DNA of 64,000 bases from Chthoniobacterales bacterium (GTDB lineage Bacteria > Verrucomicrobiota > Verrucomicrobiia > Chthoniobacterales > JAATET01). The first letter of the stretch is position 1. Each line of letters begins with the position of its first letter. The stretch is from positions 18,099-82,098 of the forward strand of contig JAATET010000031.1 in the NCBI GenBank assembly GCA_015655545.1, written 5' to 3'. The translations under genes and the position numbers were made by a program. Shown here one piece after another: positions 12,524 through 58,662 of the stretch. A model generated the notes under the pieces. That model did no database searches, was not told the DNA's origin, and was given only the letters and a program-made list of their open reading frames with translations.

Positions 12524-13144
12524 ATGAAGGCGCATAATAAGAATTTCTTCAGGAAGGGGATACACCTCTCTACGATTGGGGCATTGGCGACGCTCGCCTT
12601 CACCACCCCGCATCACCTCTTCGGACTTGAGCCTCTGACCTCAGCCGGAAATTTCCAGACTGGTTCCGCGGAGACTTTTCCGACGCCGGAGGGATTGAAT
12701 TCGCTCGTTCCTGCCGAACGATTGGCTTCCCTGGAAAAAATGATTTCCGCGGATTACGACCGTAAAGCCTCGATAAGGCTTGCGATGGAAGCGGAGTTAA
12801 GCACATCCGAGCCTTCCAGTCATGTTTCCGGGCAGCCGGCAAGGGCCACGGGTCCAAGTGACCAGGAATTGAATGCCGAGTGGAGCGAATGGCATATCAA
12901 CCATGCGCTCATGGTGGCGGCCGAAGCCACTCGCCAAAGCCCCGAGTCTTCACCCCAGCGTCCCATTCCGGAACTGGTCGCAATTCACGAAGAAAAGCAG
13001 CGTCTTTTCACGGAGCTCGCAAAAGCCATGGCGACAGGAGGCGGGACATCCGCCACCGCGATGGAAAAATCCACCGCCCTCCTGCTCGAAAATCTCTCTA
13101 ATCCCCCGTCCAGCTCACCAAATCCCAATTCGAGTAACCGATGA
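12524..13144 (+). CDS. putative exported hypothetical protein (first gene of the Rhs operon)
   Basis: Basic N-terminus plus hydrophobic stretch; ATGA overlap with the next gene. Confidence 0.55.
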   Translation: MKAHNKNFFRKGIHLSTIGALATLAFTTPHHLFGLEPLTSAGNFQTGSAETFPTPEGLNSLVPAERLASLEKMISADYDRKASIRLAMEAELSTSEPSSHVSGQPARATGPSDQELNAEWSEWHINHALMVAAEATRQSPESSPQRPIPELVAIHEEKQRLFTELAKAMATGGGTSATAMEKSTALLLENLSNPPSSSPNPNSSNR

Positions 13145-13911
13145 ACCCGATCAAAACCACCTTCCTATTATCCATGGGCATGCTTTGCGGCGTGCTTCAG
13201 GCGCAGCAAGTTTTTACCACCGATGTGCAGATCACCAGCACGAACGCCGCGGCGCCAAACCTGAAGACTACCGGCCCTGGCGGCGTGCTTTTTGGCGGCA
13301 CCTTCGGCAGCGGGAGTCTTCCGACCACCGGAGATGGCGCGCGATTCATGTGGTATCCGAAAAAGGCAGCCCTCCGAGTCGGCTGGGTGGATTCTGGACG
13401 GTGGGACGACGCCAATATCGGCGATTACTCCATGGGAATCGGAGCCAACTCCATCGCATCAGGCTACAGCACGATAGCGCTCGGGTCCGCTATGGCCTCA
13501 GGGCACCAAGCCTTTGCGGCCGGCTGGGGCTCACAGGCTACGGGCAGCTTTGCCGCGGCGGTTTCCGTTGGCACCGCGACCAATTATTGCACATTTGCCG
13601 CCGCTTTGGGCACCGCCAATGGTTACCAGAGTGTGGCCCTCGGGGGGCTGGCCCTGGGCAGTTATTCCACGGCGATTGGCATAAACGCCCAATCGGTCAC
13701 GGTTGGTTCGACGGTGGTGGGGCAATACAATGAGCTGGGCGGGAATCCCACGGTCCCGGCCAATACTGATGCCATCTTCATCGTGGGCACCGGGACGGGA
13801 ACCGGCGATCGAAAGAATGGCTTCGAAGTGCGGCGCGACGGCACCGTGCGCATCGCCAAACGCCAGGGCGACATCGTGATGGGTGTTTTTGGTAACGGCG
13901 GCGGCGATTAG
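13141..13911 (+). CDS. secreted protein with YadA/Hep_Hag-like head repeats
   Basis: Signal peptide (LQA-QQ), GARFMWYPKKAALRVG...WDDANIGDYS motif, repeated SxAxG units, C-terminal RQGDIVMG. Confidence 0.75.
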   Translation: MNPIKTTFLLSMGMLCGVLQAQQVFTTDVQITSTNAAAPNLKTTGPGGVLFGGTFGSGSLPTTGDGARFMWYPKKAALRVGWVDSGRWDDANIGDYSMGIGANSIASGYSTIALGSAMASGHQAFAAGWGSQATGSFAAAVSVGTATNYCTFAAALGTANGYQSVALGGLALGSYSTAIGINAQSVTVGSTVVGQYNELGGNPTVPANTDAIFIVGTGTGTGDRKNGFEVRRDGTVRIAKRQGDIVMGVFGNGGGD

Positions 13912-13924
13912 AAGGAACCAACCC

Positions 13925-14692
13925 ATGCGACGTATCAATTTATTGACCGGACTGGCGTGCCTATTGGCATGCGGTCATTTGGACGCAGCGGAGCCTGCTT
14001 GGTGGAGATCCGGTGTGACGCAGTGCATGGATACGACTCCGAGCACCACCGAGAACTATCAGCCCGTAAATCAAGGCCAGCTCAAGAACGTTGCCACCAA
14101 GGCCGCGCTTTATCTAAATGCCACACTGGCGAGCGTGGGTGGCGCGGGCACGGCGGTTAACAACATGGTCGCCAGTTTTCAACATACGTCGGAAGACTAT
14201 GCCCCGATCAATATTGGTCAGCTTAAAGCGATAGCTAAGCCATTTTACGACCGCCTCATGGCCGTTGGTTACAACACGAAACTTAGCTTGGCATACCAAG
14301 GCGCTACAGAATGGAGCTATGATTATCCTTGGAATTCGGCGACACCAGCTTCGGAAAATTACGCAATTGCGAATATTGGTCAGTTGAAACTAGTGTTTAG
14401 TTTTGATGTGACCGATTCCGACGCAGACGGGTTGCCTGACTGGTGGGAACTGCAATATGGCGGGTCACTGACCACGTTGAACGGCGATGGCATTCACGAC
14501 ACGGACGGGGATGGCATTAGCGACCTGGCGGCGTATCAACTCGGATTGAATCCCGTCTCCAATCATCTGAACAACGCGACCGAGACCGAAAACATTAGCT
14601 ACGACGCGGCGCACCGCATCACGGCTGTGAGCGGCCGAAGTGCGCTCGGCTATACGCAAGATGCGGGTGGCAACTTGGTGCACAGCAATTAG
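13925..14692 (+). CDS. secreted protein with 3x NxGQLK repeats, DxDxDG Ca-binding motifs and terminal YD-like strands
   Basis: Signal peptide; NYQPVNQGQLK / DYAPINIGQLK / NYAIANIGQLK; DSDADGLPDWWE, DTDGDGISD; YDAAHRIT...YTQDAGGNL. Confidence 0.75.
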   Translation: MRRINLLTGLACLLACGHLDAAEPAWWRSGVTQCMDTTPSTTENYQPVNQGQLKNVATKAALYLNATLASVGGAGTAVNNMVASFQHTSEDYAPINIGQLKAIAKPFYDRLMAVGYNTKLSLAYQGATEWSYDYPWNSATPASENYAIANIGQLKLVFSFDVTDSDADGLPDWWELQYGGSLTTLNGDGIHDTDGDGISDLAAYQLGLNPVSNHLNNATETENISYDAAHRITAVSGRSALGYTQDAGGNLVHSN

Positions 14693-14704
14693 GGGAACAT
14701 CTGT

Positions 14705-17700
14705 ATGAAAGACCGGCAGACCGTTGATAGGAAAAGTTGTTTGGTCGCCTTGCTCATCCTGGCATCGTGTGTCTTAATGGGCAATCGCACCAATGCGATG
14801 TCCTCGACAGCCTCCAGCGACGCCGATTACCGCACTCCAGAATTAATCGCCCTAGCCGCGGGATTGAAGAATGATCGGGAATCAATTTTCAAATGGGTGC
14901 GTGAAAACATCCGTTACGTGCAGTATTACGGCTGCAAAAAGGGGGCCTATCTCACATATCTGGAGCGTAGTGGAAATGATGCGGACCAGAGCGCATTACT
15001 TGTCGCTCTTTGGCGGGCTGCGGGTATTTCGTGTCAATATGTCTGGGGCTGGGGAGAATTGCCGATATCTGCCGCGAATAATGTCGATTGGTATCATTAC
15101 TTGGGTGCCGATGGTGTGCAGGACGTCGGCAACGGGAATACCTCTCTGGATCAACTGGTTTGGCTGCGTGGCGAACCGACTTATGGATGGTGGGATGGCT
15201 CTTTCTTGGCAAATAGCAAAGGGATGGCGCGAGTGTGGGTGCAAACGAACGTGAATGGCACCTTAAAAAGCTACGATCCTTCCTTTAAGTTAATTCAACC
15301 TGTCGCTGGACTCGCTGTTGCGTCACTGATGAATTACAATAGAGCAAGCTTGTTGAGCAGTTTGGGCGCTGGAACAACGGGAACCAATTCCATCACGGGG
15401 CTGAGTTATTCCGGGTTAAGTGCTTATCTTTCTGGTTGCGCCGCTCAGTTCATAACGACGTATCAAAATTCTCATTTTAATAAAACCGTCGATGAAATCG
15501 TGGGTGGCTGGAAACCTCTTTCAAGCGAGAGTCTTACATTTCCAATCACGTCGGTGATGACCACGAATGACCTATTGGATAACTTGTCCACGACCACCAC
15601 CGGTGGGCAAACGGTTTACGTGGGATACGCCTCAATTAAGATCCAGGTGTTTCTTTCGTCCGACACCGGCCACACCAGTCCCATTGTCACTTGGGGGGCG
15701 GTTAATATGGCAAGTTTAAGGGGACGGCGTCTCGGATTGGTCTCCGAGAGCAATAAAGTTACGTTAAAACTGGATGATACCCAGATCGTTCAAGCAGCGT
15801 CGACCACGACAGTCGGAACGCCCCTGGATATCGTAGTCGATATCACTCATGCGGGTTCTCCATATATAAATCCAGCTTTCAACTTGATCGGCAAGGTTAT
15901 GAAGGCAAAGGCGGGTGCAAGTTATGCGCTCGTTTATGGTTTCGATGTATCCTCGGATTATCTCAATACGCGCCAGCAGCAATTGGCAAGCTATAAGGAG
16001 CAGGGATTGGGCGATCAAGATCCCAAAATGATTTTGGAGACGCTGAATATCATAGGCCTGCAATGGATGCTCGAGACCGATTCGGCCCACGGATTAATAG
16101 GAAATCTAAAAAATCTATCGTCCACATTTCTTTATCGCTTTGGTCGGGCGGCGCAGGAACCGACGACATCAGGAAATGCTGTATATGTTGATTTGCCTTT
16201 CAATTACACCGGATATGTTTCGCGCGTGCCCGACACCGGCGCAGCGAATACCCTGACAGCGGAATCGGCCTACAGCTTTATCATGAGCGCCATGGAGCAT
16301 GGCGTGCTGGACCAGATGCAGGCGGTGACGGCTGTTTCGACGGTAAAAGTGCTTAAAATGGCCAATGAACAATCGATTCCCATTTTTCTGGCGAATCCCG
16401 GTAACTGGTCTTCAGTGCGGTCGCAATTGATACCGCTAATTAATATCTTTTCTCCCTATGGAGCCGGGGACCTCGCGCAACTCGACGGCGCTATTAGTGA
16501 AGGTGCCAGTATTTTGCTTCCCAAGAATGGTCACATAACCCAGTCCGGGTGGGCTTGGAATGGGTCTGCTTATGCCGCGATTCTTTGGAATGCGGTCGGG
16601 TCGTCGTATTGGAAAATGATCATTGGTCAGACTTACAATGGGGGTTTTTCAACCCTTCCCAATGTTCAGACCAACCCCAGTTCCGTTCTGACTCAAAGTC
16701 ATGCTCAGGCAAATCTGTTTCAAAAAAACCCGGTGACATTGAAGGTGAGTTACGGTCTCGATCCCGTGAATCTCGCGACCGGTAACTTTACGCACCAGAG
16801 GGAATTGCTCACGGCTGGGGATGGCCTTGTTCGCGGACTCAATTTCTCGGTTAGTTACGATGGGGGGGACAGGCTCAAGAACGACGCCAAGATCGGCTAC
16901 GGCTGGACCCACAGCTACTATGTGCGTGCGGTGGAAATGGCGGATGTCGATGGGGCCTTTGGGAAAAAAACACCCATCGAGATGGCGGCAACGCTTGCGG
17001 GCGTCGTGGCGGCGCTGGATGTCTTCGCCAACCGAACAACCGTGAAGGACTGGCTGGGAACGGCCTTGATTGCGAACTGGATGGTGGATCAGTTGACGGG
17101 CAGTGCCGTTTCCATCGTTTCCGGAAACCAGATTTGGCAGTTCCACAAGCAGGCGGACGGCAGCTACTCAGCGCCTCCGGGGGCGACCCAGGTGCTGACC
17201 AAACCGGCAAACTATCAACTCGTGGAGCGCAACGGTCCCACTTGGAAATTCGATGCGAATAAGCGGCTCTCAGAGATTGAAGACCTTTGGGGGAAGAAGC
17301 TGACGCTTAACTACAACACGAATGGCGATCTTGGAACCGTAGCGGACGCTTATGGGCGGACTTTGACTTTTAATTACATTGGTTCGGGTGCGGCGGCAGT
17401 TTTGAACACGGTTGCGGACAATAGCTCTCGAAGCGTGACTTTCACGATCGACAGTTCAAAAAATCTGACCGCTTTCACCGATCCGGAAGGCAAATCCGAT
17501 AATTTCGAATATGTCTCCGGACATTTGATCGCAAATTACAAAAACCACGACGGCAATGTCGTGGTCTCGAATGTCTACGATGCCCAGGGACGGGTCGCGA
17601 CCCAGGATACCATGGGCGACCCGGCCCAACGCTGGCACCTTTATTATTCTCCCGGGCAGACCATCGAGCAGGAGCCGGGCGGAGCGTCGACACTTCACTT

Positions 17701-20692
17701 TTTCGATGGCCGCAATCGTGAGGTCGAGGTGGACAATGCGTTCGGCCACCGCCTGCTGACCACCTATGACGCACAGGACCGCATCCGGAAAAAGGAACGG
17801 ATCGTCGAGACCACGGTCGACGAGACGATGCTCTACGATTATGACAATAATCATAACCTCACCGTGGAGACCGATCCCAAGGGGAAGACGACGGTCTATG
17901 CTTACGATGGCAGCAATCAGCTCACGAGTGTGAAGGACAAGCGCGGTAATTACACCTATTACCAAAACTACAATGCGCAGCATCAGCCGCAGCAGATTAC
18001 CGATCGGGAAAACCGGGTCGTCACCTGCACCTACAAACCACCCGCCGATCCGGGGGCTGGCTATCTCGCCTCGGTTACGGAGGGCGGGTTTACGACCAGC
18101 TATGGCTACGACGCCAAGGGCGCGTTGAATTCGATCACCTATCCCGGCGGCGCCGGCGAGAGCATGGTGAATAACGCCTTTGGGGATCCCGCCACCAGAA
18201 CCGATGAACTCACCCGGCAGACGCTCATCGAGTATAACCTGCGCCGCGAAGTCACCAGCACGACCACCCCCGGCTCGAGTAGCGGCTCGCGGACAAGCTA
18301 CATGAGCTATGACAATAAGCGCGACCTGCTCGGGATATGGAATCCGCGAGGATATGCGACTTTTACGTTTCAGACCGTGACGCACAAGCCGGGGCAGACG
18401 ACCCTGCCCGACGGCAGCGTGGCGTGGAGCCTCTACGACATCAACGACCGTGTGCAGTGGACCGCCACGTTATTGACGCTCTGGACTCACCACACCCGGG
18501 ACACGCTGGGGCGGGAGACGGCCCTCACCGATCCCATCGGTCGGACGACGACCACGATCTTTCAGGACGACCTCCGCAAGACGATCGTGCAGAGCCCGTC
18601 GCCGCTCAATATCCAGACCAAGGCGACCGTCGACGAGCGCGGGCAGGTGGTGCGGGACGAGGACGGCCTGGGCAACTATGCGACTCCCGGCTACGACGAC
18701 AACGGCAACAAGACGACGTGGATCGACCGCCGGGGGAAAACGTGGTCATTCGTCTACGACAAGGAGGATCGGCTGATCACGACGACGAGCCCGCTCTCCC
18801 GGGCGACGCAGAGCCCATATAACGCGCGAGGGCTGCTCGATCACATCACCGAGCCCTCCACGCAAGTGACGACGTTCGGCTACGATGGGAGGCGACGCCT
18901 CACGAGTCGTGCCGACGCCGTGGGAACGATCAATTACGGGCTCGATAACGCGAGCCAACTGCTCACCGTCACGCAAGGCGCGGCGGTGCTCGCGCGCACC
19001 TATTATGGCAGCGGGGAGGTCGCGACCTATAAGAACGCGAACAACGAGACGACCGGCTACGATTACGACAAGGATGGCAACCTGACCTCGCTGACGTATC
19101 CGGCGGTCGGAAGCGTGCCATCGGCGACGGTGACCTACACGTATGACAATCGCGACCGGCTGACGAGCATGACGGATTGGGCGGGGCGGATCACCACCTA
19201 TTCATGGGACGCGGAAGGGAAGCTGACGGGAGTGACCCGGCCTAACGGGACGAAGAGGCGATTGAGCTGGGATTGGGCGGGGGAGATGCTGGCCGTCGAG
19301 GAGAGGCCGGCGAGCGGAGCGCCGCTGGCGGTGCGATCCTTCCATTACGACGCGGCGGGACGAATCGACAAACGCCTGATCTATCCGCAGGCGACGGCGT
19401 GGGCGGAGCCGGCGTGGACGGCGGTTCCCGACAACGACAATCGACTCACGTCGGTGGCCGGAGCGACGTTGAGCTACGACGCGGATGGCAACCTGCAGGG
19501 AAGCCGTTTGCCGGACGGCCCATGGGGATCGAGCGGCACGTCCTCGGGGGTGAGCGGGACATTTACCTGGAATGCGCGCAATCAACTCACGGGCGTAGTC
19601 CGGACCGGAGGGCAGACGGCCGGCTACACCTACGACGCGGAAGGGAATCTCATTCAGACGGTCGATAGTGTGGCGGGAACGACACGGTGGATCATTGACC
19701 CAAACGGAGGCGAGAGCCCGCGCATTCTGGCGAAGGTGGCGCCCAATGGAAACGTGACGCGCTACGTATATGGAGTTGGCCTTGTCTATGAAGTGAGGCA
19801 GGATGGGAGCGTGCGCTACTATCACTACGATCAGGTGGGGAGCACGGTGGCGTTGACCGACGGCACCGGCGCGGTGACAGGGAGGGCGGACTACAGCCCG
19901 TATGGCACCCTGCAAAGCACGAGTGGAGAATTGGCCAATGCGAATGCCACGCCATTTCTCTTCGTAGGGGCCTATGGAGTGATGACGGATTCGGTGACGG
20001 GGCTACATCAGATGCGGGCTCGGTGGTATTCAAGCTACTTGCGTCGGTTCCTCAATGAAGACCCCAGCAGATTTGCGGGCGGGGAGAACTTTTATGCTTA
20101 TGCTTCAGGCAATCCTATCAGCCTTGTTGATCCGAGTGGATTGTGGGGCGTCCAATTTGGGGAAGATGGAATGAATATTGGGAAAGGAGATCCAACGCTC
20201 GTTTTTACGGCGAGAGGAACGTCGAACGCTTATGGAAGTGTATTAAGCTCTATTGCAGATACGCTCACGCTTTCAGGTGGGCGTCTTTCAGCAGCCAATG
20301 AAAATTTCCGTTCGGGAGGTCGAGAGCCAATCAACGTAAATCCTAATACTCTAGACTTTAGTCAATTGAAACCCGGACAAAAGTTTTATACCTTTCCGAT
20401 TACTTCGCCGGGGGATTTTGTTGTCCATGGAACGGTATTAGTCAATCCTTCCACAATGAGCGTTCGCGACGATTATGATTTTGATCTTAAGCCGTGGACC
20501 TTAAAAACTGCGGTGAGAAATACAGAAACGATAGCAGCCCATTTTATTGCCGATCCGCTTGATGCGTTTACTGATTTCTCTGGTAGAAGAACTGGATCTG
20601 CAAATAAATCTGGGAATGGGGCATTTCCATTTAATTTCACGAGTTCTATTTCGAGTGTCGGCTCAAAATCTTCTGGCTCTATTTGGAAATGA
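14705..20692 (+). CDS. Rhs/YD-repeat polymorphic toxin with signal peptide and transglutaminase-like N-terminal domain
   Basis: DPVNLATGNF, many YD repeats, core YYHYDQVGST...RARWYS...RFLNEDP, NPISLVDPSGL/W cleavage motif, AT-richer C-terminal domain. Confidence 0.93.
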   Translation: MKDRQTVDRKSCLVALLILASCVLMGNRTNAMSSTASSDADYRTPELIALAAGLKNDRESIFKWVRENIRYVQYYGCKKGAYLTYLERSGNDADQSALLVALWRAAGISCQYVWGWGELPISAANNVDWYHYLGADGVQDVGNGNTSLDQLVWLRGEPTYGWWDGSFLANSKGMARVWVQTNVNGTLKSYDPSFKLIQPVAGLAVASLMNYNRASLLSSLGAGTTGTNSITGLSYSGLSAYLSGCAAQFITTYQNSHFNKTVDEIVGGWKPLSSESLTFPITSVMTTNDLLDNLSTTTTGGQTVYVGYASIKIQVFLSSDTGHTSPIVTWGAVNMASLRGRRLGLVSESNKVTLKLDDTQIVQAASTTTVGTPLDIVVDITHAGSPYINPAFNLIGKVMKAKAGASYALVYGFDVSSDYLNTRQQQLASYKEQGLGDQDPKMILETLNIIGLQWMLETDSAHGLIGNLKNLSSTFLYRFGRAAQEPTTSGNAVYVDLPFNYTGYVSRVPDTGAANTLTAESAYSFIMSAMEHGVLDQMQAVTAVSTVKVLKMANEQSIPIFLANPGNWSSVRSQLIPLINIFSPYGAGDLAQLDGAISEGASILLPKNGHITQSGWAWNGSAYAAILWNAVGSSYWKMIIGQTYNGGFSTLPNVQTNPSSVLTQSHAQANLFQKNPVTLKVSYGLDPVNLATGNFTHQRELLTAGDGLVRGLNFSVSYDGGDRLKNDAKIGYGWTHSYYVRAVEMADVDGAFGKKTPIEMAATLAGVVAALDVFANRTTVKDWLGTALIANWMVDQLTGSAVSIVSGNQIWQFHKQADGSYSAPPGATQVLTKPANYQLVERNGPTWKFDANKRLSEIEDLWGKKLTLNYNTNGDLGTVADAYGRTLTFNYIGSGAAAVLNTVADNSSRSVTFTIDSSKNLTAFTDPEGKSDNFEYVSGHLIANYKNHDGNVVVSNVYDAQGRVATQDTMGDPAQRWHLYYSPGQTIEQEPGGASTLHFFDGRNREVEVDNAFGHRLLTTYDAQDRIRKKERIVETTVDETMLYDYDNNHNLTVETDPKGKTTVYAYDGSNQLTSVKDKRGNYTYYQNYNAQHQPQQITDRENRVVTCTYKPPADPGAGYLASVTEGGFTTSYGYDAKGALNSITYPGGAGESMVNNAFGDPATRTDELTRQTLIEYNLRREVTSTTTPGSSSGSRTSYMSYDNKRDLLGIWNPRGYATFTFQTVTHKPGQTTLPDGSVAWSLYDINDRVQWTATLLTLWTHHTRDTLGRETALTDPIGRTTTTIFQDDLRKTIVQSPSPLNIQTKATVDERGQVVRDEDGLGNYATPGYDDNGNKTTWIDRRGKTWSFVYDKEDRLITTTSPLSRATQSPYNARGLLDHITEPSTQVTTFGYDGRRRLTSRADAVGTINYGLDNASQLLTVTQGAAVLARTYYGSGEVATYKNANNETTGYDYDKDGNLTSLTYPAVGSVPSATVTYTYDNRDRLTSMTDWAGRITTYSWDAEGKLTGVTRPNGTKRRLSWDWAGEMLAVEERPASGAPLAVRSFHYDAAGRIDKRLIYPQATAWAEPAWTAVPDNDNRLTSVAGATLSYDADGNLQGSRLPDGPWGSSGTSSGVSGTFTWNARNQLTGVVRTGGQTAGYTYDAEGNLIQTVDSVAGTTRWIIDPNGGESPRILAKVAPNGNVTRYVYGVGLVYEVRQDGSVRYYHYDQVGSTVALTDGTGAVTGRADYSPYGTLQSTSGELANANATPFLFVGAYGVMTDSVTGLHQMRARWYSSYLRRFLNEDPSRFAGGENFYAYASGNPISLVDPSGLWGVQFGEDGMNIGKGDPTLVFTARGTSNAYGSVLSSIADTLTLSGGRLSAANENFRSGGREPINVNPNTLDFSQLKPGQKFYTFPITSPGDFVVHGTVLVNPSTMSVRDDYDFDLKPWTLKTAVRNTETIAAHFIADPLDAFTDFSGRRTGSANKSGNGAFPFNFTSSISSVGSKSSGSIWK

Positions 20693-21012
20693 ATTTCTTT
20701 AAATGGCGGTTTCTATTTGAGATAGCAATGGGAGTGGTTTACCTAACGGGGTGCCACGAACTTAAGATTGATGAAAAGGAAGCTCGAAAGTATGCACAAC
20801 AGCGCTTTGAAAAAGATTGCGAAATGATCAATCAACGAGCGGATAAGTTCGTTGGGCCGCAATTCACAGGAACAAGTAAAGGTAATACAGGGGAAATATG
20901 GTATCAATACGTGTGGGAAAATAAACTTTCCAATACGGAAATTATCGTTGGAGTGTCTGAATCTGGAGAAATCGCAGGAGGGACAGGCCCGATTGAGCGA
21001 CGGCAACCATAG
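20689..21012 (+). CDS. putative cognate immunity lipoprotein
   Basis: ATGA overlap with the Rhs stop, AT-rich, lipobox LTGC. Confidence 0.75.
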   Translation: MNFFKWRFLFEIAMGVVYLTGCHELKIDEKEARKYAQQRFEKDCEMINQRADKFVGPQFTGTSKGNTGEIWYQYVWENKLSNTEIIVGVSESGEIAGGTGPIERRQP

Positions 21013-21130: not shown

Positions 21131-22048
21131 ATGCCGAGGCAGGCGCGGATTGAATACGAAGGGGCGATTTACCATGTGATGAACCGCGGGGACCGGCGGG
21201 AGAACATCGTGCATGGGGACGAAGACAGAAAATCTTTCGTGAAGACGTTGGGGGAGGCTTGCGGGAAATGCGGATGGGAGGTTCACGCATGGTGCCTGAT
21301 GTCGAACCATTTTCATTTGGTGGTGGAAACTCCACTCGGCAATCTAGTGGCGGGAATGAAATGGCTCCTGGGCACCTATACGATCCGGTTCAATGCACGG
21401 CATCGACTGCGCGGGCACCTGTTTGCGGGGCGCTACAAATCTGTAGTTGTCGACGACGCGGATCACCATTACTTGCGTCGGGTGAGCGACTACGTGCATC
21501 TCAATCCCGCCCGTGCAGGATTGATCAGCCAGAGCGAGCCTTTGGAAGCCTACCCGTGGAGCAGCTATCGGGCCTATCTGCAAAAGAAGCGTCCACCTTG
21601 GCTCAGGGTGGATCGTGTCCTCGGCGAGCATGGCGTGCAAATCGATAACCATGCGGGACGGCTTGAATTCGCGCGATGCGTGGAAGCCATTCGGAATGAT
21701 CCAGAGGCTGAGGCGAGTGATCGAAGCCTGTTGCGGGGATGGCGCGCCGGGAGCGAAGAATTTGTCGCCCGGTTGCTGGACAGGCTCGAGGGAAAAATCA
21801 CGCCGCACCACTCTGCCGATATGCGGAGCGAGGTGATGTCACTGCGGGCCGACAGATTGATTGCGGAAGGTCTTGCCAAGGCAAACTGGACAGCAGATCG
21901 GCTTGCGCACGAGAAAAAGAGCCACCCGGTAAAAGTCGCCATTGCCAAGCAACTGCGATCCCAAACCACTATGAGCCTAGCTTGGATTGCGGACCGACTC
22001 CACATGGGACGTTGGACGTATGTTTCCAGTCTTTTAAGACAACAATGA
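21131..22048 (+). mobile_element. RAYT / Y1_Tnp HUH tyrosine transposase with C-terminal HTH
   Basis: YHVMNRG, CLMSNHFHLVV (HUH), GHLFAGRYKS, YVHLNP (catalytic Tyr), YPWSSY, C-terminal SLAWIADRLHMG. Confidence 0.92.
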
Positions 22049-22137: not shown

Positions 22138-22986
22138 ATGAAACTTTTTTTCTTAAGTCTATTCATGCTCGTCAGCCCTGCTTTGATAGTAAAGGGCAAC
22201 GGATCAATCACCGATCCTGTAAAGGACTATTTATCTAAGTTTACATTTTACGATGGTCGTAAAAATTTCTATTCTGATGACAGGTTGCTTCGATTAGACA
22301 TAGATTTAAATAATGACGGTCAACAGGAAATGTTGCTCTCATTAGCAAGGGATAAAAACGGTAAACAGGGGAACACTTGGGCTGTATATCGGAAAACAAA
22401 AATCGGCTATGAAGACATAGGCGGAATGACTTTTAGCTCAAGTGGTTTTTACCTTGGACATATCAACGATACTGATGACTATGGGATTGTAAGCTTCTGG
22501 CCGGGAGGTGCTGGAGAAGGGATGTTGTTGGCACACATCTTCGATGGTTCGGAGATCAAAGAGATACAAATTGGAGAGATAAGACGGGATCCAATCACTG
22601 GAAAACTCGAAGGCAAAGAACTTCTTGATAAATATTCGGGCTCTCATGCGATAAATGGTGACAACGTGATTACTACCATAAGTGCCGTCCAACTAGCCAA
22701 AGATTACGGAATTACTATTGAACCCCAAACTTATCTCCAAGCCCTGCAGGAGGGCTTGCCAGCATCGACTCCGATAAGAACTCCTCTAGCTTCGGCTGTG
22801 GCAACACCGCCACTGGAAATGCCTAAGCCGTCCCCGTCAGCCGTAGCATCGACACCGCGACCGAGTGCGACCGCGACGACCGCCACGGAAAAGCCAGCTT
22901 CCAGCTTCTCTATCGTTTCCGCAGTGATTCTGACGGGGATAATCACGGGTGTGTCGGTGTTCATGTGGTGGCGGAAATCTCGCTAA
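22138..22986 (+). CDS. AT-rich exported protein with C-terminal membrane anchor (orphan immunity-like)
   Basis: Signal peptide, DLNNDGQQE motif, S/T/P-rich linker, TM helix plus WWRKSR. Confidence 0.75.
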   Translation: MKLFFLSLFMLVSPALIVKGNGSITDPVKDYLSKFTFYDGRKNFYSDDRLLRLDIDLNNDGQQEMLLSLARDKNGKQGNTWAVYRKTKIGYEDIGGMTFSSSGFYLGHINDTDDYGIVSFWPGGAGEGMLLAHIFDGSEIKEIQIGEIRRDPITGKLEGKELLDKYSGSHAINGDNVITTISAVQLAKDYGITIEPQTYLQALQEGLPASTPIRTPLASAVATPPLEMPKPSPSAVASTPRPSATATTATEKPASSFSIVSAVILTGIITGVSVFMWWRKSR

Positions 22987-23548
22987 TCGTCTGGTTCTGC
23001 TCGTCCCCATTGATTTAAAGGAGGTCGATGAAAAGGATCAACGATGGAATCGAGCCCCTTCGCCTAAGCGTCCTCCTTATGCCAACGATATCGGTCTTCC
23101 CGCGGACCAGATTAACAACACCGTCTATGTAGCGGTCGAGCCAACTAGCTCAAAAGTTGAACTCATCGTTAAAACATCCACTCCGAGTTTGGGGGACATG
23201 CACGCCCTGTGCGGGGTGCGTGATTTGCAGACGAACACCATCTTGGACGACGTGGCCGTTACCAATCCTTCAGGGGAAACGGAGCTTTCTTTCACCCCTT
23301 CGGGAAGCGTCCACCAGAAGCTATTTAGAGTGGTTATCGGGCTGGATCGAAACAAAGATGGAAAGCTAGGAAATGACGAGGTGGACAGCGATAACCTGCC
23401 TCAAAATCAGCGACTCTATGTGCGCGCTGTTTCAGCTCAAGATTACCAGGATTCGCTTTCCTACCTGCAAAATCGCTCTTGGTTGCTGCTTCCTTTATCA
23501 GTTTCAGCAGACTTCTTCGATTATTTCTCGGGGAATGGTTCTGGAACG
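22987..23548 (+). pseudogene. start-less fragment of a large secreted protein, truncated at motif copy C
   Basis: Open frame LVLLVPIDLKEV...GLDRNKDGKLGNDE...DFFDYFSGNGSGT; protein-like composition stops at the motif. Confidence 0.55.
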
Positions 23549-23570
23549 GGGTCAGTCCTCACTATCGACA
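23549..23570 (+). repeat. transposase-end motif copy C (direct repeat of A)
   Basis: GGGTCAGTCCTCACTATCGACA, 20/22 identical to copy A. Confidence 0.85.
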
Positions 23571-23645
23571 CATCGCCAGTAAGATTCGGTCGCCACTTAT
23601 ATAATTCCATCGATTCCTTGTTACGAAATCCTAAAGTGAAATTCG

Positions 23646-23852
23646 GTGAAACTGCAGCAGGATCAAATCTGGAAACAAGGGGACGTTTATTTGCGAATCG
23701 TCCGTCTCGAGCGCCTGAAGGTGGAATACAAAGCGCAAAAGAACATCCACTTGCGCGACGGAAAACATCATCACGTCACCAAAAAAGAATTCTGCCGCCT
23801 CATCAAAGGCGCGACGCTGCTTCCGATGACGGTGTCCGAAGAACCTGCCTAG
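23646..23852 (+). CDS. small hypothetical protein
   Basis: 68 aa MKLQQDQIWKQGDVYLRIVRLERLKVEYK...VTKKEFCRLIKGA; compact and globular-looking; GTG start. Confidence 0.65.
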   Translation: MKLQQDQIWKQGDVYLRIVRLERLKVEYKAQKNIHLRDGKHHHVTKKEFCRLIKGATLLPMTVSEEPA

Positions 23853-23880
23853 AGGCAGTCGAGAATTTCTGGAAATATGA

Positions 23881-24029
23881 ACAGGAGGAAACGGAGAGAA
23901 CGGAGACCAGTATTAACAGAAGGATGCGAAGGATGCGAAGGATGCGAAGGGGATGATTCCTCGGGCCTTTCTTTGCATCCTTCTGTTAAAAATTCCCTTC
24001 CTTCCTCACTTCCCTCCGTTGCCTCCTGT
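23881..24029. repeat. nested REP-like palindromic element
   Basis: Outer arms 23881-23896 / 24014-24029 (15/16); inner arms 23913-23931 / 23971-23989 (18/19); internal (GAAGGATGC)x3. Confidence 0.8.
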
Positions 24030-54210: not shown

Positions 54211-57200
54211 TCAAGGGATGGTGGCCTTGAGTCGGATGAAGCGGGAGTTGAAGGCCTTGAAAGGGGTGTTGTCCCGGACGCGCAGGGTGGAGGCAGTATC
54301 GATCTCGACCGTTGTGCCGTCACTGGTCCATGCGGCGGAGTCCTTGAGATTCCCCGTGACCTCCACGCGCAGGGCCACATCGGTGGCGTCCGGATTTTTC
54401 GAAGTGGTCAGACGGAGGTAGGTTTCCGCGCCGATCGTTTCGGCATCCACGACGATTCCGCTGGGCCCGTTGGCGCGGGGAGGAAGCCCGAGGGCATATT
54501 CCAGGAGATTATTGAGGCCGTCGCCATCCGGGTCCGCGAGATTCCCCGCGATGAGAGAGTTTCCGGCATCGGCGCCGAACTGATCGATACGCCAGAGATC
54601 GAGCTTCGATTGCACGGTGATCGCGACCGTCGTGGAGGCGGACTTCAGCGGATAGACGCCGGCGATGCCATCGTCCTGAACGCCGACGGTCAGGTTGACC
54701 ACCTGGCCGGAAGGCAGGGCGCCGGCATTCACCACGGTGATCGCGCCGGTGGCGGAATTCATGGCAAAAGCCCCCGCCGCATTGCCGCCAAGAATGGCGT
54801 AACAGCGCGGACCACCCTCCGGATCGTTGGCGGAAACCGTGCCGACGAGCGTGCCATTTGTCGCATGAACGGACGTGGTGAAGGCATAAGGCGCCCCGGA
54901 CCAAACCGGCGCGACATTGATGTCGAACGGCTTCAGCGCCGTCCCGGGGATAATCGTCGGGGTCGCAATGTCCGGCCCCGTCCACGCCACCTGCACGAAG
55001 TCCGCGCCGGCCCCTTCTTTATGGATCGTCTCGATGTAGTAGGACTGGCCGGCCGTCAAAGTGTAGGTGGGGGAGACTTGGGACGAGCCTGTCCACACGT
55101 TGCGCAAGGTCGATGTCGAAACGCCGGCGACCTGGGTCACCGCCGGCGTGGGACCGGCGGTATTGAAGCGCAGCTGCGACGCATCGTCGCTGGCAATGTA
55201 AAACTTGTAGCTGCCGGTCGTGGGCGGCACGACGCAGGCGCGAATCCGCGAGCCATAATTGTCTCCGTAATTCGCGCCGGTATCGAAAGACGACAGAACC
55301 CTCGAAGTGGTGGGCAGGTTGGGATAAACGGCGGATTTGCTGGTCAGGTCGGCAACCGTCGCCCCCGCGATGCCGGTCCAAATCTGCTGCACGATGCCGT
55401 CGGCCGTGATTACGCCGGCCCCCGCCACATTCACGGTGATCTTGCCCGTTCCGGACAATGCGGAGGCGCTGTTATCCGTGGCTTTGATCTGCAAGGCGTA
55501 GGAGGTCGCTGCCGATGCCGAGAGATTTGCGTTATTCGCGACAAAAAGCCGCCCGGTGGCCGCATCGATGCCAAAAATCCCGGCATTATTCCCCCCCGCG
55601 ATGGCGAAGCTGAGCGTATCCTCCGCATTCCCATCGGTCGCTGCAACCATGCCCACGGAGCTCCCGGTGTAGGCGTCTTTGCGGACGGTCAAGGTGGCGG
55701 CGGGGACGATCGGGGCGTAATTCGGGGAAAACGGGACCAGGAATCGTCCGGGAATGACCTGTTGCGCGATATTTGGTCCCTGCCACGCGACCGCGAGATG
55801 ATCGCCGCCGTTGCCCTGCGCCTGACGCGCCTCGATGTAATAAGGTTGCCCGGCGGTGAGAGCGATCACCGCCGTTTTTTGCGACGCGTATTTTGTGTAT
55901 TGATGCGGATCGGTCCAGCCGGTGGCCGTCGCCCGCACCGTGGCGGAGGCAGGGCTCGCATTCGGACTCAGGCGGAGTTCGCCCTGATCGTCGGAAGAAA
56001 TCCAGAATGTGTAATTGCCCGTGGCTGGCGGAATCAGATAACCCCGCACCGTGCTGCCGTAGTAGTTCATGCCGTGCGTATCGGCATCGAATTTCGTCAG
56101 GATTTCCACCGAGTCGGGCTGGTCGGGGAACTTCGGGCTGGCGGTCAAATTACCGAGCACGCCGGTGCCGCCAATATTCTCATAGAAACACCGCAGGACC
56201 GTGCCAGGCGTGTAGCCTGACGGCGTCGGGATGACGGTCACCGTGACCTGGACGTCCTTCGTCAAGGCAGGGGTGCCGTGATCGGTGGCCCTCAAGACCA
56301 GCGGATAAGTCGTCGGCGTGGAGACATCGACCGCCGCCGCCGCCGAGATCACCCCGGTGAAGGCATCAATGGCAAAAATGCCGCCCGCATTGCCGCTAAG
56401 GATCGAAAAAATTGGGAAGTCGAATCGATCCGGGTCGCTGCCAATCGCCGTAAACAAAGCCGTCCCGCTCTTGGTATGCGCCAACATGGTAAACGAACCG
56501 CCGGTGAGGGTTGGCGCTTCATTCACGTCCCCGACGGTGACAACCACGCGGATGGATTCGTTCAGGGAAGGGGCGGCTCCATCGGTAATGGTCACAAAAA
56601 GCTGAAAAGTCGCGGGGTCGTCCCATTGCTTCGAGAGAGCCTCGTAATTGAGAAGCGTCGAGTTCGCGACCGTGATCACGCCGTTCGCGGGATTTATCGA
56701 AAACGCGCCGCTTTCGTTCCCGGACGCAATCGCCCAAGTCAGCGGATTCGTCCCGTGACCCACCCTCGGTGCAATGGTCCCGACGGCCGTGCCATTGGCC
56801 GTGTTTTCCGCGACGGTGAGACGATCCGGCTTCACGCCGCCGGTGGTTGTTCCCGTGATCAGATAAGCGCCAATCGTTCCATAGTCCGTATACCCGGTGG
56901 TCAGCGGATCGCCTTTCCCGACGCCGTCCACGCGCAGGGTATATTCCCCCGCGGGAAGGGTGGCGGAAACGGTCGCCGCGAGTTGAGCTTCCGGGTTGCT
57001 GCCGGCCACGAGCACGCCCGCGCTATCATAGATTTCCGCCAGGATATCGAGATTCGGGCCGGCGTTTACCGGCGTCACGGTGAAGAAATTCGCGCCGCCG
57101 GTCGTTTTGAAGCGAAAAGCGTCCACGTCGTTCCTTGTCTCGATAATTCCTTCGTTCGAGACGCTGTTATTTGGCTGTATCTCGAGGTATCCGGCGGTGG

Positions 57201-58662
57201 CCAGCGTCGCTCCGTAGTCGTCCGCGCGATAGTCGACCGAGTTGTTGTTGTTCGTGATGATCGAAAGATCGTCTTCCTTGTTACTCGGGTTGGCGTATTC
57301 GCCCTTCGACCATTGACAGAGATTTTGATAATAACCAACGCCCATGATCGGCGCCCAACCGGTTTCCCCGGAGCCTTGTCCTTGATAATATTCCACATGC
57401 GGCATCCCTGGATTGTCCTGCCCATCATGCGAGAGCCCGAGGGTATGCCCGATCTCATGCGAGGAAGCATCGGCCGCGCTTTTTCCCGTGGAGTAGAACG
57501 ACCAGCAAACGGAGTCGCCACTCCAATTCCACGCGCCCACAAAAGCCACGCCACCGGCCGATGGTGCCGCGGTCGTCGTCGGGGTGAGGATCACATGGAT
57601 CCGACTGGTTTCCGGCGCCTTGTCGAAGACATTCCGATCCGTCGTTACATTGATATTAAATGCTTGATAGTCTTCCGCGATGCGCTGCCAGACATCCTTG
57701 ATCTGCGCGTTGGTCGCGTTGGAGGGCGCCGCATCGAAATTTCCCCAGCCCGCAAACGGCCCTTTTTCTCCGTCGAAGTCGAGGTAGATCACTCCGGCCG
57801 CCCCCGGCAGACTTTGCAAGGGCACAACGCCGTTTTGAGATCCCGCAATGGGTATATTGGTCGGATGCGTCTGCGGGACGGCCATCGTCGTCCCATCCGA
57901 AGGGCCGCTCGCCGGAACGCTCGCCACCAGCTGGGCCGGTTCATTCGTCGAAGTCGCGGGCGCGGTTGCCGTTGCGGGCGGCGTTGCGGAAACCGATGTC
58001 GTGCCCCCATCTTTTTTCAGCGTCGGGAATCCAAAGCAGACCACATCCCCGAGGCGGCGGGCGACGAGCATGGGGGTTCCCCCCGGGCCGATGGGCTCGG
58101 CGCGGTAGGCCACGAGGCCCTTGTCGAAGCGCACATTTCCCACGAACATACCCGCGGGCGTCGCCACGGTTTGTTTCTGGAAAAAATAAAAACCCGGCTC
58201 GGGCGCGGAAAGACGCCCCTGCACCAGCGACACGTTGCCTTTCGCGTCCCGCTTCAGCATTTCCACCGTTCCGACCGCCAACTGGCCTCCGGGCAGGGTG
58301 AAATTCGCGGCTTGCTCCGATCCATGGACGATCTTGTCGAGAAAGTCCGGCGCCAGGGCCAATGGCGGAGGCCCGCCCGGGAGAGGCTCCTCGGTTTTCG
58401 TGGGGACATGAACCGCGCCCGGCCGCGCCGGCGCCACCATCGGATCGACACCCGCAAAAAGATTCCCGGCGGCCGCCTGTAACGGTGCCGGCGGCGTTGA
58501 ACCCCGAGGCGCCGCCGCCATCGGCATCTGCCCTGCCGGCGAGGTCTGCGCCGCCACCGGCTTTTGAGCCTGCCCCGATGGGGAAGGCGGATTAGTGAGC
58601 AAAAAGATCACACCAAGCGCCAGGAGAACCAGGCACAGCAAAAAGGCGAGGGAACGCTTCAT
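54211..58662 (-). CDS. large secreted metzincin metalloprotease with PPC, cadherin-like and PA14 domains
   Basis: N-terminal signal/TM, HEIGHTLGLSHDG, PIMG Met-turn, GNxxGxFxI cadherin repeats, YTFWISSDD/YKFYIASDD PA14 motifs, C-terminal DPDGDGLNNLLEYALG...RFIRLK. Confidence 0.88.
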   Translation of the reverse strand: MKRSLAFLLCLVLLALGVIFLLTNPPSPSGQAQKPVAAQTSPAGQMPMAAAPRGSTPPAPLQAAAGNLFAGVDPMVAPARPGAVHVPTKTEEPLPGGPPPLALAPDFLDKIVHGSEQAANFTLPGGQLAVGTVEMLKRDAKGNVSLVQGRLSAPEPGFYFFQKQTVATPAGMFVGNVRFDKGLVAYRAEPIGPGGTPMLVARRLGDVVCFGFPTLKKDGGTTSVSATPPATATAPATSTNEPAQLVASVPASGPSDGTTMAVPQTHPTNIPIAGSQNGVVPLQSLPGAAGVIYLDFDGEKGPFAGWGNFDAAPSNATNAQIKDVWQRIAEDYQAFNINVTTDRNVFDKAPETSRIHVILTPTTTAAPSAGGVAFVGAWNWSGDSVCWSFYSTGKSAADASSHEIGHTLGLSHDGQDNPGMPHVEYYQGQGSGETGWAPIMGVGYYQNLCQWSKGEYANPSNKEDDLSIITNNNNSVDYRADDYGATLATAGYLEIQPNNSVSNEGIIETRNDVDAFRFKTTGGANFFTVTPVNAGPNLDILAEIYDSAGVLVAGSNPEAQLAATVSATLPAGEYTLRVDGVGKGDPLTTGYTDYGTIGAYLITGTTTGGVKPDRLTVAENTANGTAVGTIAPRVGHGTNPLTWAIASGNESGAFSINPANGVITVANSTLLNYEALSKQWDDPATFQLFVTITDGAAPSLNESIRVVVTVGDVNEAPTLTGGSFTMLAHTKSGTALFTAIGSDPDRFDFPIFSILSGNAGGIFAIDAFTGVISAAAAVDVSTPTTYPLVLRATDHGTPALTKDVQVTVTVIPTPSGYTPGTVLRCFYENIGGTGVLGNLTASPKFPDQPDSVEILTKFDADTHGMNYYGSTVRGYLIPPATGNYTFWISSDDQGELRLSPNASPASATVRATATGWTDPHQYTKYASQKTAVIALTAGQPYYIEARQAQGNGGDHLAVAWQGPNIAQQVIPGRFLVPFSPNYAPIVPAATLTVRKDAYTGSSVGMVAATDGNAEDTLSFAIAGGNNAGIFGIDAATGRLFVANNANLSASAATSYALQIKATDNSASALSGTGKITVNVAGAGVITADGIVQQIWTGIAGATVADLTSKSAVYPNLPTTSRVLSSFDTGANYGDNYGSRIRACVVPPTTGSYKFYIASDDASQLRFNTAGPTPAVTQVAGVSTSTLRNVWTGSSQVSPTYTLTAGQSYYIETIHKEGAGADFVQVAWTGPDIATPTIIPGTALKPFDINVAPVWSGAPYAFTTSVHATNGTLVGTVSANDPEGGPRCYAILGGNAAGAFAMNSATGAITVVNAGALPSGQVVNLTVGVQDDGIAGVYPLKSASTTVAITVQSKLDLWRIDQFGADAGNSLIAGNLADPDGDGLNNLLEYALGLPPRANGPSGIVVDAETIGAETYLRLTTSKNPDATDVALRVEVTGNLKDSAAWTSDGTTVEIDTASTLRVRDNTPFKAFNSRFIRLKATIP

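Follow-up and report, generated by a model that had tools for sequence, protein, structure and literature searches.

A predicted 3:1 tail-adaptor module upstream of a putatively Sec-exported transglutaminase-Rhs protein in Verrucomicrobiota

How Rhs and other polymorphic toxins that carry a signal peptide reach their targets in diderm bacteria lacking a type VI secretion system (T6SS) is a question for the field. It is raised by an operon of five tightly coupled plus-strand genes in a Chthoniobacterales bacterium (assembly GCA_015655545.1, contig JAATET010000031.1). The operon lies in a window of 64,000 nucleotides, by which we mean the whole stretch of DNA that was analyzed, and its GC content is below that of its flanks. 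The stop codon of gene 1 overlaps the start of gene 2, and gene 5 overlaps the stop codon of the Rhs gene. A preliminary description made from the letters and open reading frames had listed five coupled genes, a YadA-head-like protein, NxGQLK and DxDxDG repeats, an Rhs protein and a lipoprotein; all of these were found. The features, in window coordinates, are as follows.

12524..13144, plus strand: gene 1, 206 aa, an orphan whose start only weakly resembles a signal peptide.
13141..13911, plus strand: gene 2 (T), 256 aa, an apparently exported YadA-head/fibre-like protein, predicted to form a trimer and devoid of a beta-barrel anchor.
13843..13896, plus strand: T tail (gene 2 residues 235-252, QGD-x-x-MG-x-F), the predicted docking strand, common to T genes.
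13925..14692, plus strand: gene 3, 255 aa from its ATG, an apparently exported adaptor/linker with an N domain, DxDxDG repeats and, at the C-terminus, a YD hairpin.
13988..14413, plus strand: N domain of gene 3, 142 aa, a single helical domain of pseudo-threefold symmetry with three NxGQLK repeats.
14591..14689, plus strand: C-terminal two-strand YD hairpin of gene 3, a putative docking element for transglutaminase-Rhs.
14705..20692, plus strand: gene 4, a 1995-aa Rhs polymorphic toxin-like protein (RHS_repeat, Transglut_core, DUF6531, Rhs_assc_core).
14882..15070, plus strand: transglutaminase-like domain of gene 4 (Transglut_core, residues 60-122, E = 1.5e-8).
20141..20692, plus strand: variable C-terminal tip of gene 4, 183 aa; putative toxin.
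20689..21012, plus strand: gene 5, 107 aa, small and lipoprotein-like with lipobox LTGC; judged by its position, a likely immunity protein.

All five proteins had been said to bear N-terminal export signals, and a hydropathy heuristic bears this out: each N-terminus has a basic n-region followed by a hydrophobic stretch, with best 12-residue hydropathy means of 1.79, 2.24, 2.17, 3.10 and 2.05 for genes 1 to 5, gene 1 being the weakest. For gene 3, a start at GTG 13883 was rejected in favor of ATG 13925, which has a purine-rich stretch upstream and opens a clean signal peptide. Gene 1 has no Pfam family, and neither the 8,251 ORFs and proteins that were fetched nor the metagenome loci contain a homologue; we regard it as an apparent orphan rather than a demonstrated conserved part of the system. 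Just past the operon (21131-22048) lies a REP-associated tyrosine transposase-like gene, homologues of which occur in nine other fetched N-domain loci. Next come (22138-23956) the gene of an exported protein of low GC content, which has a Pro/Thr-rich linker and a membrane helix at its C-terminus, and a familyless ORF; neither has a homologue in the fetched sets, and the two may be an orphan immunity gene and the remnant of a cargo.

Gene 4 runs from a signal peptide through a transglutaminase-like domain, which the preliminary description did not have, to a familyless stretch of about 560 residues (no Pfam family at residues ~130-690), DUF6531 (residues 686-743), the RHS shell, a DPSG motif (1809-1812) and the tip. 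The position that we take to be that of the catalytic cysteine, assigned from the GxCxD motif, is Asp in 40 of the 44 aligned homologues and Cys in none; judged by this alignment, the transglutaminase domain is inactive. The N-terminal 655 residues gave a confident model (pLDDT 83, pTM 0.88), with which Foldseek returned weak transglutaminase-like rows only (best E 0.01), a result that does not amount to a new fold. A hydrophobic helical insert after DUF6531 (16934-17104 of the window) is kept in 22 aligned transglutaminase-Rhs homologues and could have a role in membrane insertion. Anchoring of the Rhs protein as a lipoprotein through LASC at residues 19-22 was considered and rejected; the closest homologue has no LASC.

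Among Rhs homologues with a common N-terminus, the tips that follow DPxG are unrelated to one another. The tip of gene 4 has no Pfam family and no homologue in the fetched sets, and is unlike the single homologue tip with which it was compared. Its GC content is 0.44 and its GC3 0.34, as against 0.64 and 0.80 in the shell just before it. Gene 5, likewise without a family or a homologue in the fetched sets, has a GC content of 0.43, close to that of the tip. Position and composition point to a putative toxin in the tip and, likely, to gene 5 as its immunity protein.

This architecture has a precedent. Toxins with a signal peptide, an inactive transglutaminase domain and RHS repeats were placed by Zhang et al. 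(2012) in a Sec/type II secretion class, and the authors proposed, in the main-text passages compared here, that transglutaminase-Rhs proteins are anchored at the surface by peptide binding (PMC3482391). Gene 4 has a signal-peptide-like start (by hydropathy), the transglutaminase domain, the RHS array, the core motif and the variable tip, and it shares with the toxins in those passages the non-catalytic state of the transglutaminase and an immunity-like downstream gene. By its sequence, gene 4 is a member of this already described class. In the same main-text passages, to which the comparison extended, neither a tail gene or three-repeat adaptor upstream nor a linker with a YD hairpin is mentioned. 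The genome also encodes a second, different Rhs protein of 1339 aa (locus L003:11304-15633, contig C102), which has a signal-peptide-like start and no transglutaminase match; a small low-complexity membrane-type gene lies behind it, and no N or T gene lies nearby.

An RHS shell and core motif are common to gene 4, T6SS Rhs effectors and the B/C components of Tc toxins, but matches to the latter two cover the shell of gene 4 and not its N-terminal 690 residues. Since DUF6531 and the Rhs core also occur in T6SS Rhs proteins, and since this genome is only 84% complete, the Rhs protein might be read as T6SS cargo whose secretion genes were lost to assembly gaps. T6SS Rhs effectors need PAAR/VgrG and a T6SS, however, and PAAR, VgrG and TssC were not found in this 84%-complete genome. 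TssC was present in just 2 of 50 carrier genomes, which had been picked for the adaptor domain or the transglutaminase-Rhs type and of which 48 are at least 90% complete; it was not found in the other 48. Neither Pfam nor Foldseek found a known T6SS-targeting domain in the Rhs N-terminus, and the protein begins with a signal-peptide-like segment. We therefore regard T6SS delivery as extremely improbable, and the earlier statement that the locus lacks T6SS adaptors is borne out for PAAR and VgrG in this genome.

We then considered the genes upstream of the Rhs gene. The N domain of gene 3 (residues 36-177 in the gene 3 frame) has no Pfam family, and the DxDxDG repeats of the same protein are TSP3_bac-like and of Ca-binding type, with a Pfam score below the cut-off. 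The N domain matched 2,299 protein clusters (50% identity, E<=0.001), mainly from Verrucomicrobiota where named; among the 150 clusters listed of these 2,299, the domain is nearly always N-terminal, in proteins of 134 to 5,532 residues. It is present in 39 of 401 genomes in a sample of the phylum, about a tenth. A conserved-peptide scan of 185,579 species genomes yielded 78 N-domain loci, the titles of which name Verrucomicrobiota in 70 cases and other phyla in five (four on contigs <7 kb), with three unclassified; because the scan peptide came from close homologues, this range may be underestimated. Haloferula luteola and Cerasicoccus maritimus are cultured carriers among these loci. Exactly three repeats are found in 111 of 119 homologues, and AlphaFold2 modelled the domain at pLDDT 95 and pTM 0.89.

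Gene 2 matches Pfam YadA_head (E 1.7e-8), and its profile matches solved heads of trimeric autotransporters, which are built of beta-roll head repeats. T genes encode 83-1315 aa, and the fibre-like domain of gene 2 occurs in only 37 of 98, so that the element common to T genes is the QGD-x-x-MG-x-F tail, in which the residues G, D, M and G are conserved in 97%, 85%, 93% and 97% of the 98 genes, respectively. The first locus set supplied 26 tails for a weight matrix, to which a short-tail pattern from the same set was added. For the test, the 78 scan loci were reduced to 70 independent ones by removing four repeats of earlier contigs, one locus without the domain and three with poor upstream sequence. 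A tail gene was found just upstream of the N domain, or fused before it, in 54 of these 70 loci, and none was detected in the other 16. Among 454 other ORFs, three had a tail, and all three were extra tail genes in tandem. The tail is fused directly before the N domain in six loci.

Similarly, just 3 of the 9,679 ORFs in the genome studied here score 10 or more, two of them beside N domains and the third a weak match. At the DNA level, a strict tail pattern was present in 15 of 39 genomes with an N domain and in 3 of 362 without, and its reversed control in none; because related genomes cannot be taken as independent, these are given as plain counts. Two of the three matches in N-less genomes were discarded as chance matches within genes. 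The third is a true tail gene with no N domain nearby, and a further such orphan was seen in a carrier genome. The expectation that the accessory genes recur with Rhs in other genomes is borne out in part: tail and adaptor recur with this Rhs type in other genomes, whereas gene 1 does not in the fetched sets.

To model the pair, we set a layout of three tails and one adaptor as the hypothesis in advance. With gene 2 (residues 90-256) in three copies and the N domain in one, the complex scored 0.83, as against 0.01 for the best of three controls. Of 157 solved complexes, 116 come up to the mark for this score, as do 2 of 215 mismatched pairs; these counts are only a rough guide here because the alignments were custom-made and the 3+1 layout is unlike the calibration set. 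At least 96% of contacts are the same between runs, the partner pLDDT is at least 87, and the three gene 2 copies fold at pLDDT 87-89. Each T copy touches the N domain solely through residues 235-252, and the closest pairs are one to one, T copies 1, 3 and 2 facing N repeats 1, 2 and 3. The model supports binding of T tails to the N-domain repeats in a 3:1 ratio. The complex may pass by virtue of its resemblance to solved homotrimeric necks.

Sequence motifs were compared as well. In trimeric adhesins the neck consensus is DAVNxxQL, where the coiled coil begins, according to the part of PMC7247746 used here. YadA_stalk is weakly matched by 37 of 98 N-domain members (E<=5; best E 6.6e-4), the N domain of the window itself has no match at E<=5, and a SadA chain matched at E 0.77, which is weak. 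The type Vc adhesins (YadA, SadA and BpaC) have beta-roll head repeats, as gene 2 does, and an NxxQL neck motif followed by a helix, which may have a neck-like counterpart in gene 3. They also have a beta-barrel anchor, whereas genes 2 and 3 have none; YadA_anchor was not found in these two genes or elsewhere in the genome, and it exceeded the cut-off in 2 of 50 carriers. Type Vc adhesins are homotrimers; here, by contrast, head and neck are in two genes, three neck-like motifs are in one chain and the predicted complex is a 3:1 heterocomplex. As modelled, genes 2 and 3 together resemble the neck of a trimeric adhesin that has been divided over two proteins.

How the adaptor could hold the Rhs protein is suggested by the end of gene 3. 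A YD hairpin ends the gene just upstream of transglutaminase-Rhs in 6 of 27 loci by a strict pattern, and in about 11 by eye. It recurs in several transglutaminase-Rhs loci without an N domain, and in four loci it lies in frame at the Rhs N-terminus. NCBIfam scans of two in-frame-hairpin loci in full found exosortase H-like genes together with midcut-by-XrtH or IPTL-CTERM segments. Where the Rhs variant has a longer N-terminus (three loci), the linker before it ends in a different strand motif. We infer from these arrangements that the linker end, being matched to its cargo, docks by strand addition, and that whatever stands before the hairpin (N domain plus T, exosortase signal or other domains) would be an exchangeable tether.

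Other candidate tethers were noted. In L091, L094, L096, L097 and L099, transglutaminase-Rhs proteins carry an in-frame N-terminal segment ending in a sorting-signal-like helix and adjoin exosortase H-like genes, an identification that NCBIfam bore out for L094 and L099; these five are apparently anchored by exosortase. In L095, L100, L101 and L107, where the N domain is absent, a conserved small gene ending in an 'FPIRSS'-type motif precedes the linker and is possibly a third type of tether.

The fold of the N domain bears on a different account of the adaptor. Its best fold matches are surface-layer homology (SLH) domains rather than a neck, at Z 6.5 (rmsd 4.2, 101 aligned residues, 7% identity) and Z 5.8 (rmsd 4.0, 100 aligned residues), the next match being at Z 4.5; the trust level is Z 8, or about 13 for helical proteins, and the SLH matches are below it. 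Like the N domain, SLH domains put three helical repeats into one pseudo-trimeric domain. The N domain might accordingly be a divergent SLH-like anchor on the envelope glycan of the producer, displaying Rhs and other cargoes, with the tail protein as a co-displayed adhesin or cap. SLH comes first in every fold search, weak Foldseek rows agree, an Atlas feature match of one homologue falls in an SLH cluster (0.78), and the same Rhs type stands beside exosortase H with IPTL-CTERM or midcut-by-XrtH, an anchor on the producer's own surface. Yet the Z scores stay under 8, the Foldseek E values exceed 0.4 and the Atlas score is at lead level only; another homologue gave no usable Atlas feature match. 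Moreover, SLH (PF00395) is absent among the 25 Pfam families listed, of 41, for 98 N-domain members, and in the model the N repeats are filled by T tails, so that the predicted ligand is a protein tail and not a glycan. We consider an SLH-type anchor unlikely, though such an anchor can be compatible with the 3:1 complex.

We prefer, with a probability of roughly 0.6, to read the operon as the locus of a Sec-exported polymorphic toxin, with three gene 2 tails seated on one gene 3 adaptor that would carry the Rhs protein. All chains would be exported by Sec and assembled outside the cytoplasm. Three C-terminal tails of gene 2 are predicted to dock on the three repeats of one adaptor, a two-protein rebuild of the head-neck junction of a trimeric adhesin, and the Rhs protein would dock on the terminal YD hairpin of this adaptor by strand addition. 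The outer membrane would presumably be crossed by way of a secretin-type (type II) system, and the genome does encode secretins. The adhesin-like trimer would hold the complex at a cell surface. We lean slightly toward the surface of the target cell, on account of the variability of the heads and the polarity of adhesins; the producer's own surface is a possibility to which we give about one chance in three, because exosortase segments substitute for the module and the fold is SLH-like. Self-cleavage at DPSG would free the tip, which probably acts outside the cytoplasm, because its likely immunity protein is a lipoprotein. The preliminary description had proposed a distinct delivery route, and this needs qualification: assembly of a trimeric adhesin-like subunit with a linker is indeed predicted, but Sec-exported transglutaminase-Rhs toxins were already described in the main text of PMC3482391.

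To see what the module carries, we sorted 73 scan loci automatically: transglutaminase-Rhs lies next to the module in 2, other Rhs in 10, Rhs is fused to the N domain in 4, and 25 have no Rhs; the remaining 32 were too incomplete. The Rhs counts are lower bounds. Among 35 long N-fused proteins (from the 150 clusters listed of 2,299), LamG, RCC1, beta-helix, Ig, FG-GAP and RHS domains were found. The C-terminal ends of 40 complete non-Rhs cargoes comprised 7 alpha/beta hydrolases, 2 DUF1800 domains, 9 adhesion or linker domains, one each of amidase, reprolysin-like, deiminase and DUF6973 ends, and 18 without a family. Not all cargoes look toxic, given the 18 familyless and 9 adhesion or linker ends. 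Behind most of the non-Rhs cargoes lies a gene that is tightly coupled to the cargo gene and has an export-like start, an arrangement that resembles toxin-immunity pairs. A CarboxypepD_reg-like domain is present in 5 of 24 scanned genes downstream of such cargoes. In L113, L130, L136, L147 and L158, a conserved exported protein of 320-350 aa with this domain lies behind an N-fused cargo, four of the cargoes ending in an alpha/beta hydrolase, and it is a candidate new immunity family. Judged by gene content, the cargoes are exchangeable, being either fused behind the adaptor or encoded beside it.

A second N+T locus in this genome (L001:13675-17672, contig C119, minus strand) carries a beta-helix-like cargo, and the region read around it contains no Rhs. 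Its order is reversed, and its N-fused beta-helix-like protein is split by an in-frame TAG into frames of 511 and 336 aa, followed by a 397-aa tail gene; it lies in a lower-GC region with a kinase and other mobile-looking genes.

This range of cargoes could be taken to mean that the module is a general, non-toxic scaffold for adhesion and exoproteins, with Rhs as an adhesin or former toxin. The many proteins in which the N domain is fused to LamG, RCC1, beta-helix, Ig or FG-GAP domains, the beta-helix-like cargo in the same genome and the absence of a known toxin family in the tip would fit such a scaffold. The variable tips after DPxG in homologues, the low-GC tip with its matching low-GC downstream gene, and the coupled exported genes behind cargoes with a hydrolase or amidase end do not, and we find a purely non-toxic role improbable.

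The opposite view, of a delivery route that is reserved for Rhs and takes in every accessory gene, gene 1 among them, was that of the preliminary description, and it fares worse. The closest Rhs relatives with enough flanking DNA mostly keep the tail gene, adaptor and hairpin (L090, L114 and L192), and small exported helical genes lie upstream of the tail gene in several other loci. However, L193, also among the closest relatives, has no module, gene 1 has no homologue in the fetched sets, and the module occurs without Rhs as Rhs does without the module. In a sample of 301 genomes of the order, 13 other genomes have transglutaminase-Rhs and one of these has T and N upstream; of 77 metagenome loci with transglutaminase-Rhs, 57 are non-redundant, 27 have enough upstream DNA and 3 of these carry T and N. 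Transglutaminase-Rhs thus does not need the module. A metagenome scan with a single protein gave no match. The accessory proteins cannot be called dedicated; the non-Rhs cargoes appear to have largely refuted this reading already, and we hold it to be very improbable.

We found no description of the tail-adaptor module in our searches of the open-access literature. The toxin class is known; what appears to be new is the module, a component open to direct test. As a whole system, MafA/MafB/MafI of Neisseria (PMC5349182) comes closest; it likewise is lineage-restricted and combines a signal-peptide-dependent polymorphic toxin and a conserved N-terminal marker domain with an upstream adhesin gene. 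Pfam found no DUF1020 or MafA family match in the five window proteins. MafB is described without an Rhs shell (PMC5349182), whereas gene 4 has one, and unlike in the Maf system the adhesin here has a defined predicted docking tail.

More broadly, and tentatively, since we rate the following at somewhat less than even odds, Verrucomicrobiota may have a modular platform of their own for toxin delivery and for display, in which a swappable trimeric head and a single-chain pseudo-trimeric adaptor convert threefold symmetry into one cargo without a T6SS or an autotransporter barrel. Cargoes, such as Rhs shells, lipase-like and amidase toxins or lectins, would be loaded by fusion or through donated beta-strands. 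The locus offers a small testable device, namely an 18-residue tail, a 142-residue adaptor and a predicted 3:1 interface, and a trimer-to-monomer junction made from a neck-like motif is of structural interest. With 2,299 unnamed clusters and about a tenth of the sampled genomes of the phylum carrying it, the adaptor could mark toxin and immunity genes; Verrucomicrobiota are abundant in soils and waters, where such a marker could serve. Elsewhere in the window (54211-58662, minus strand), we noted a protein of 1483 aa that combines a reprolysin-like metallopeptidase domain with cadherin and PA14 domains.
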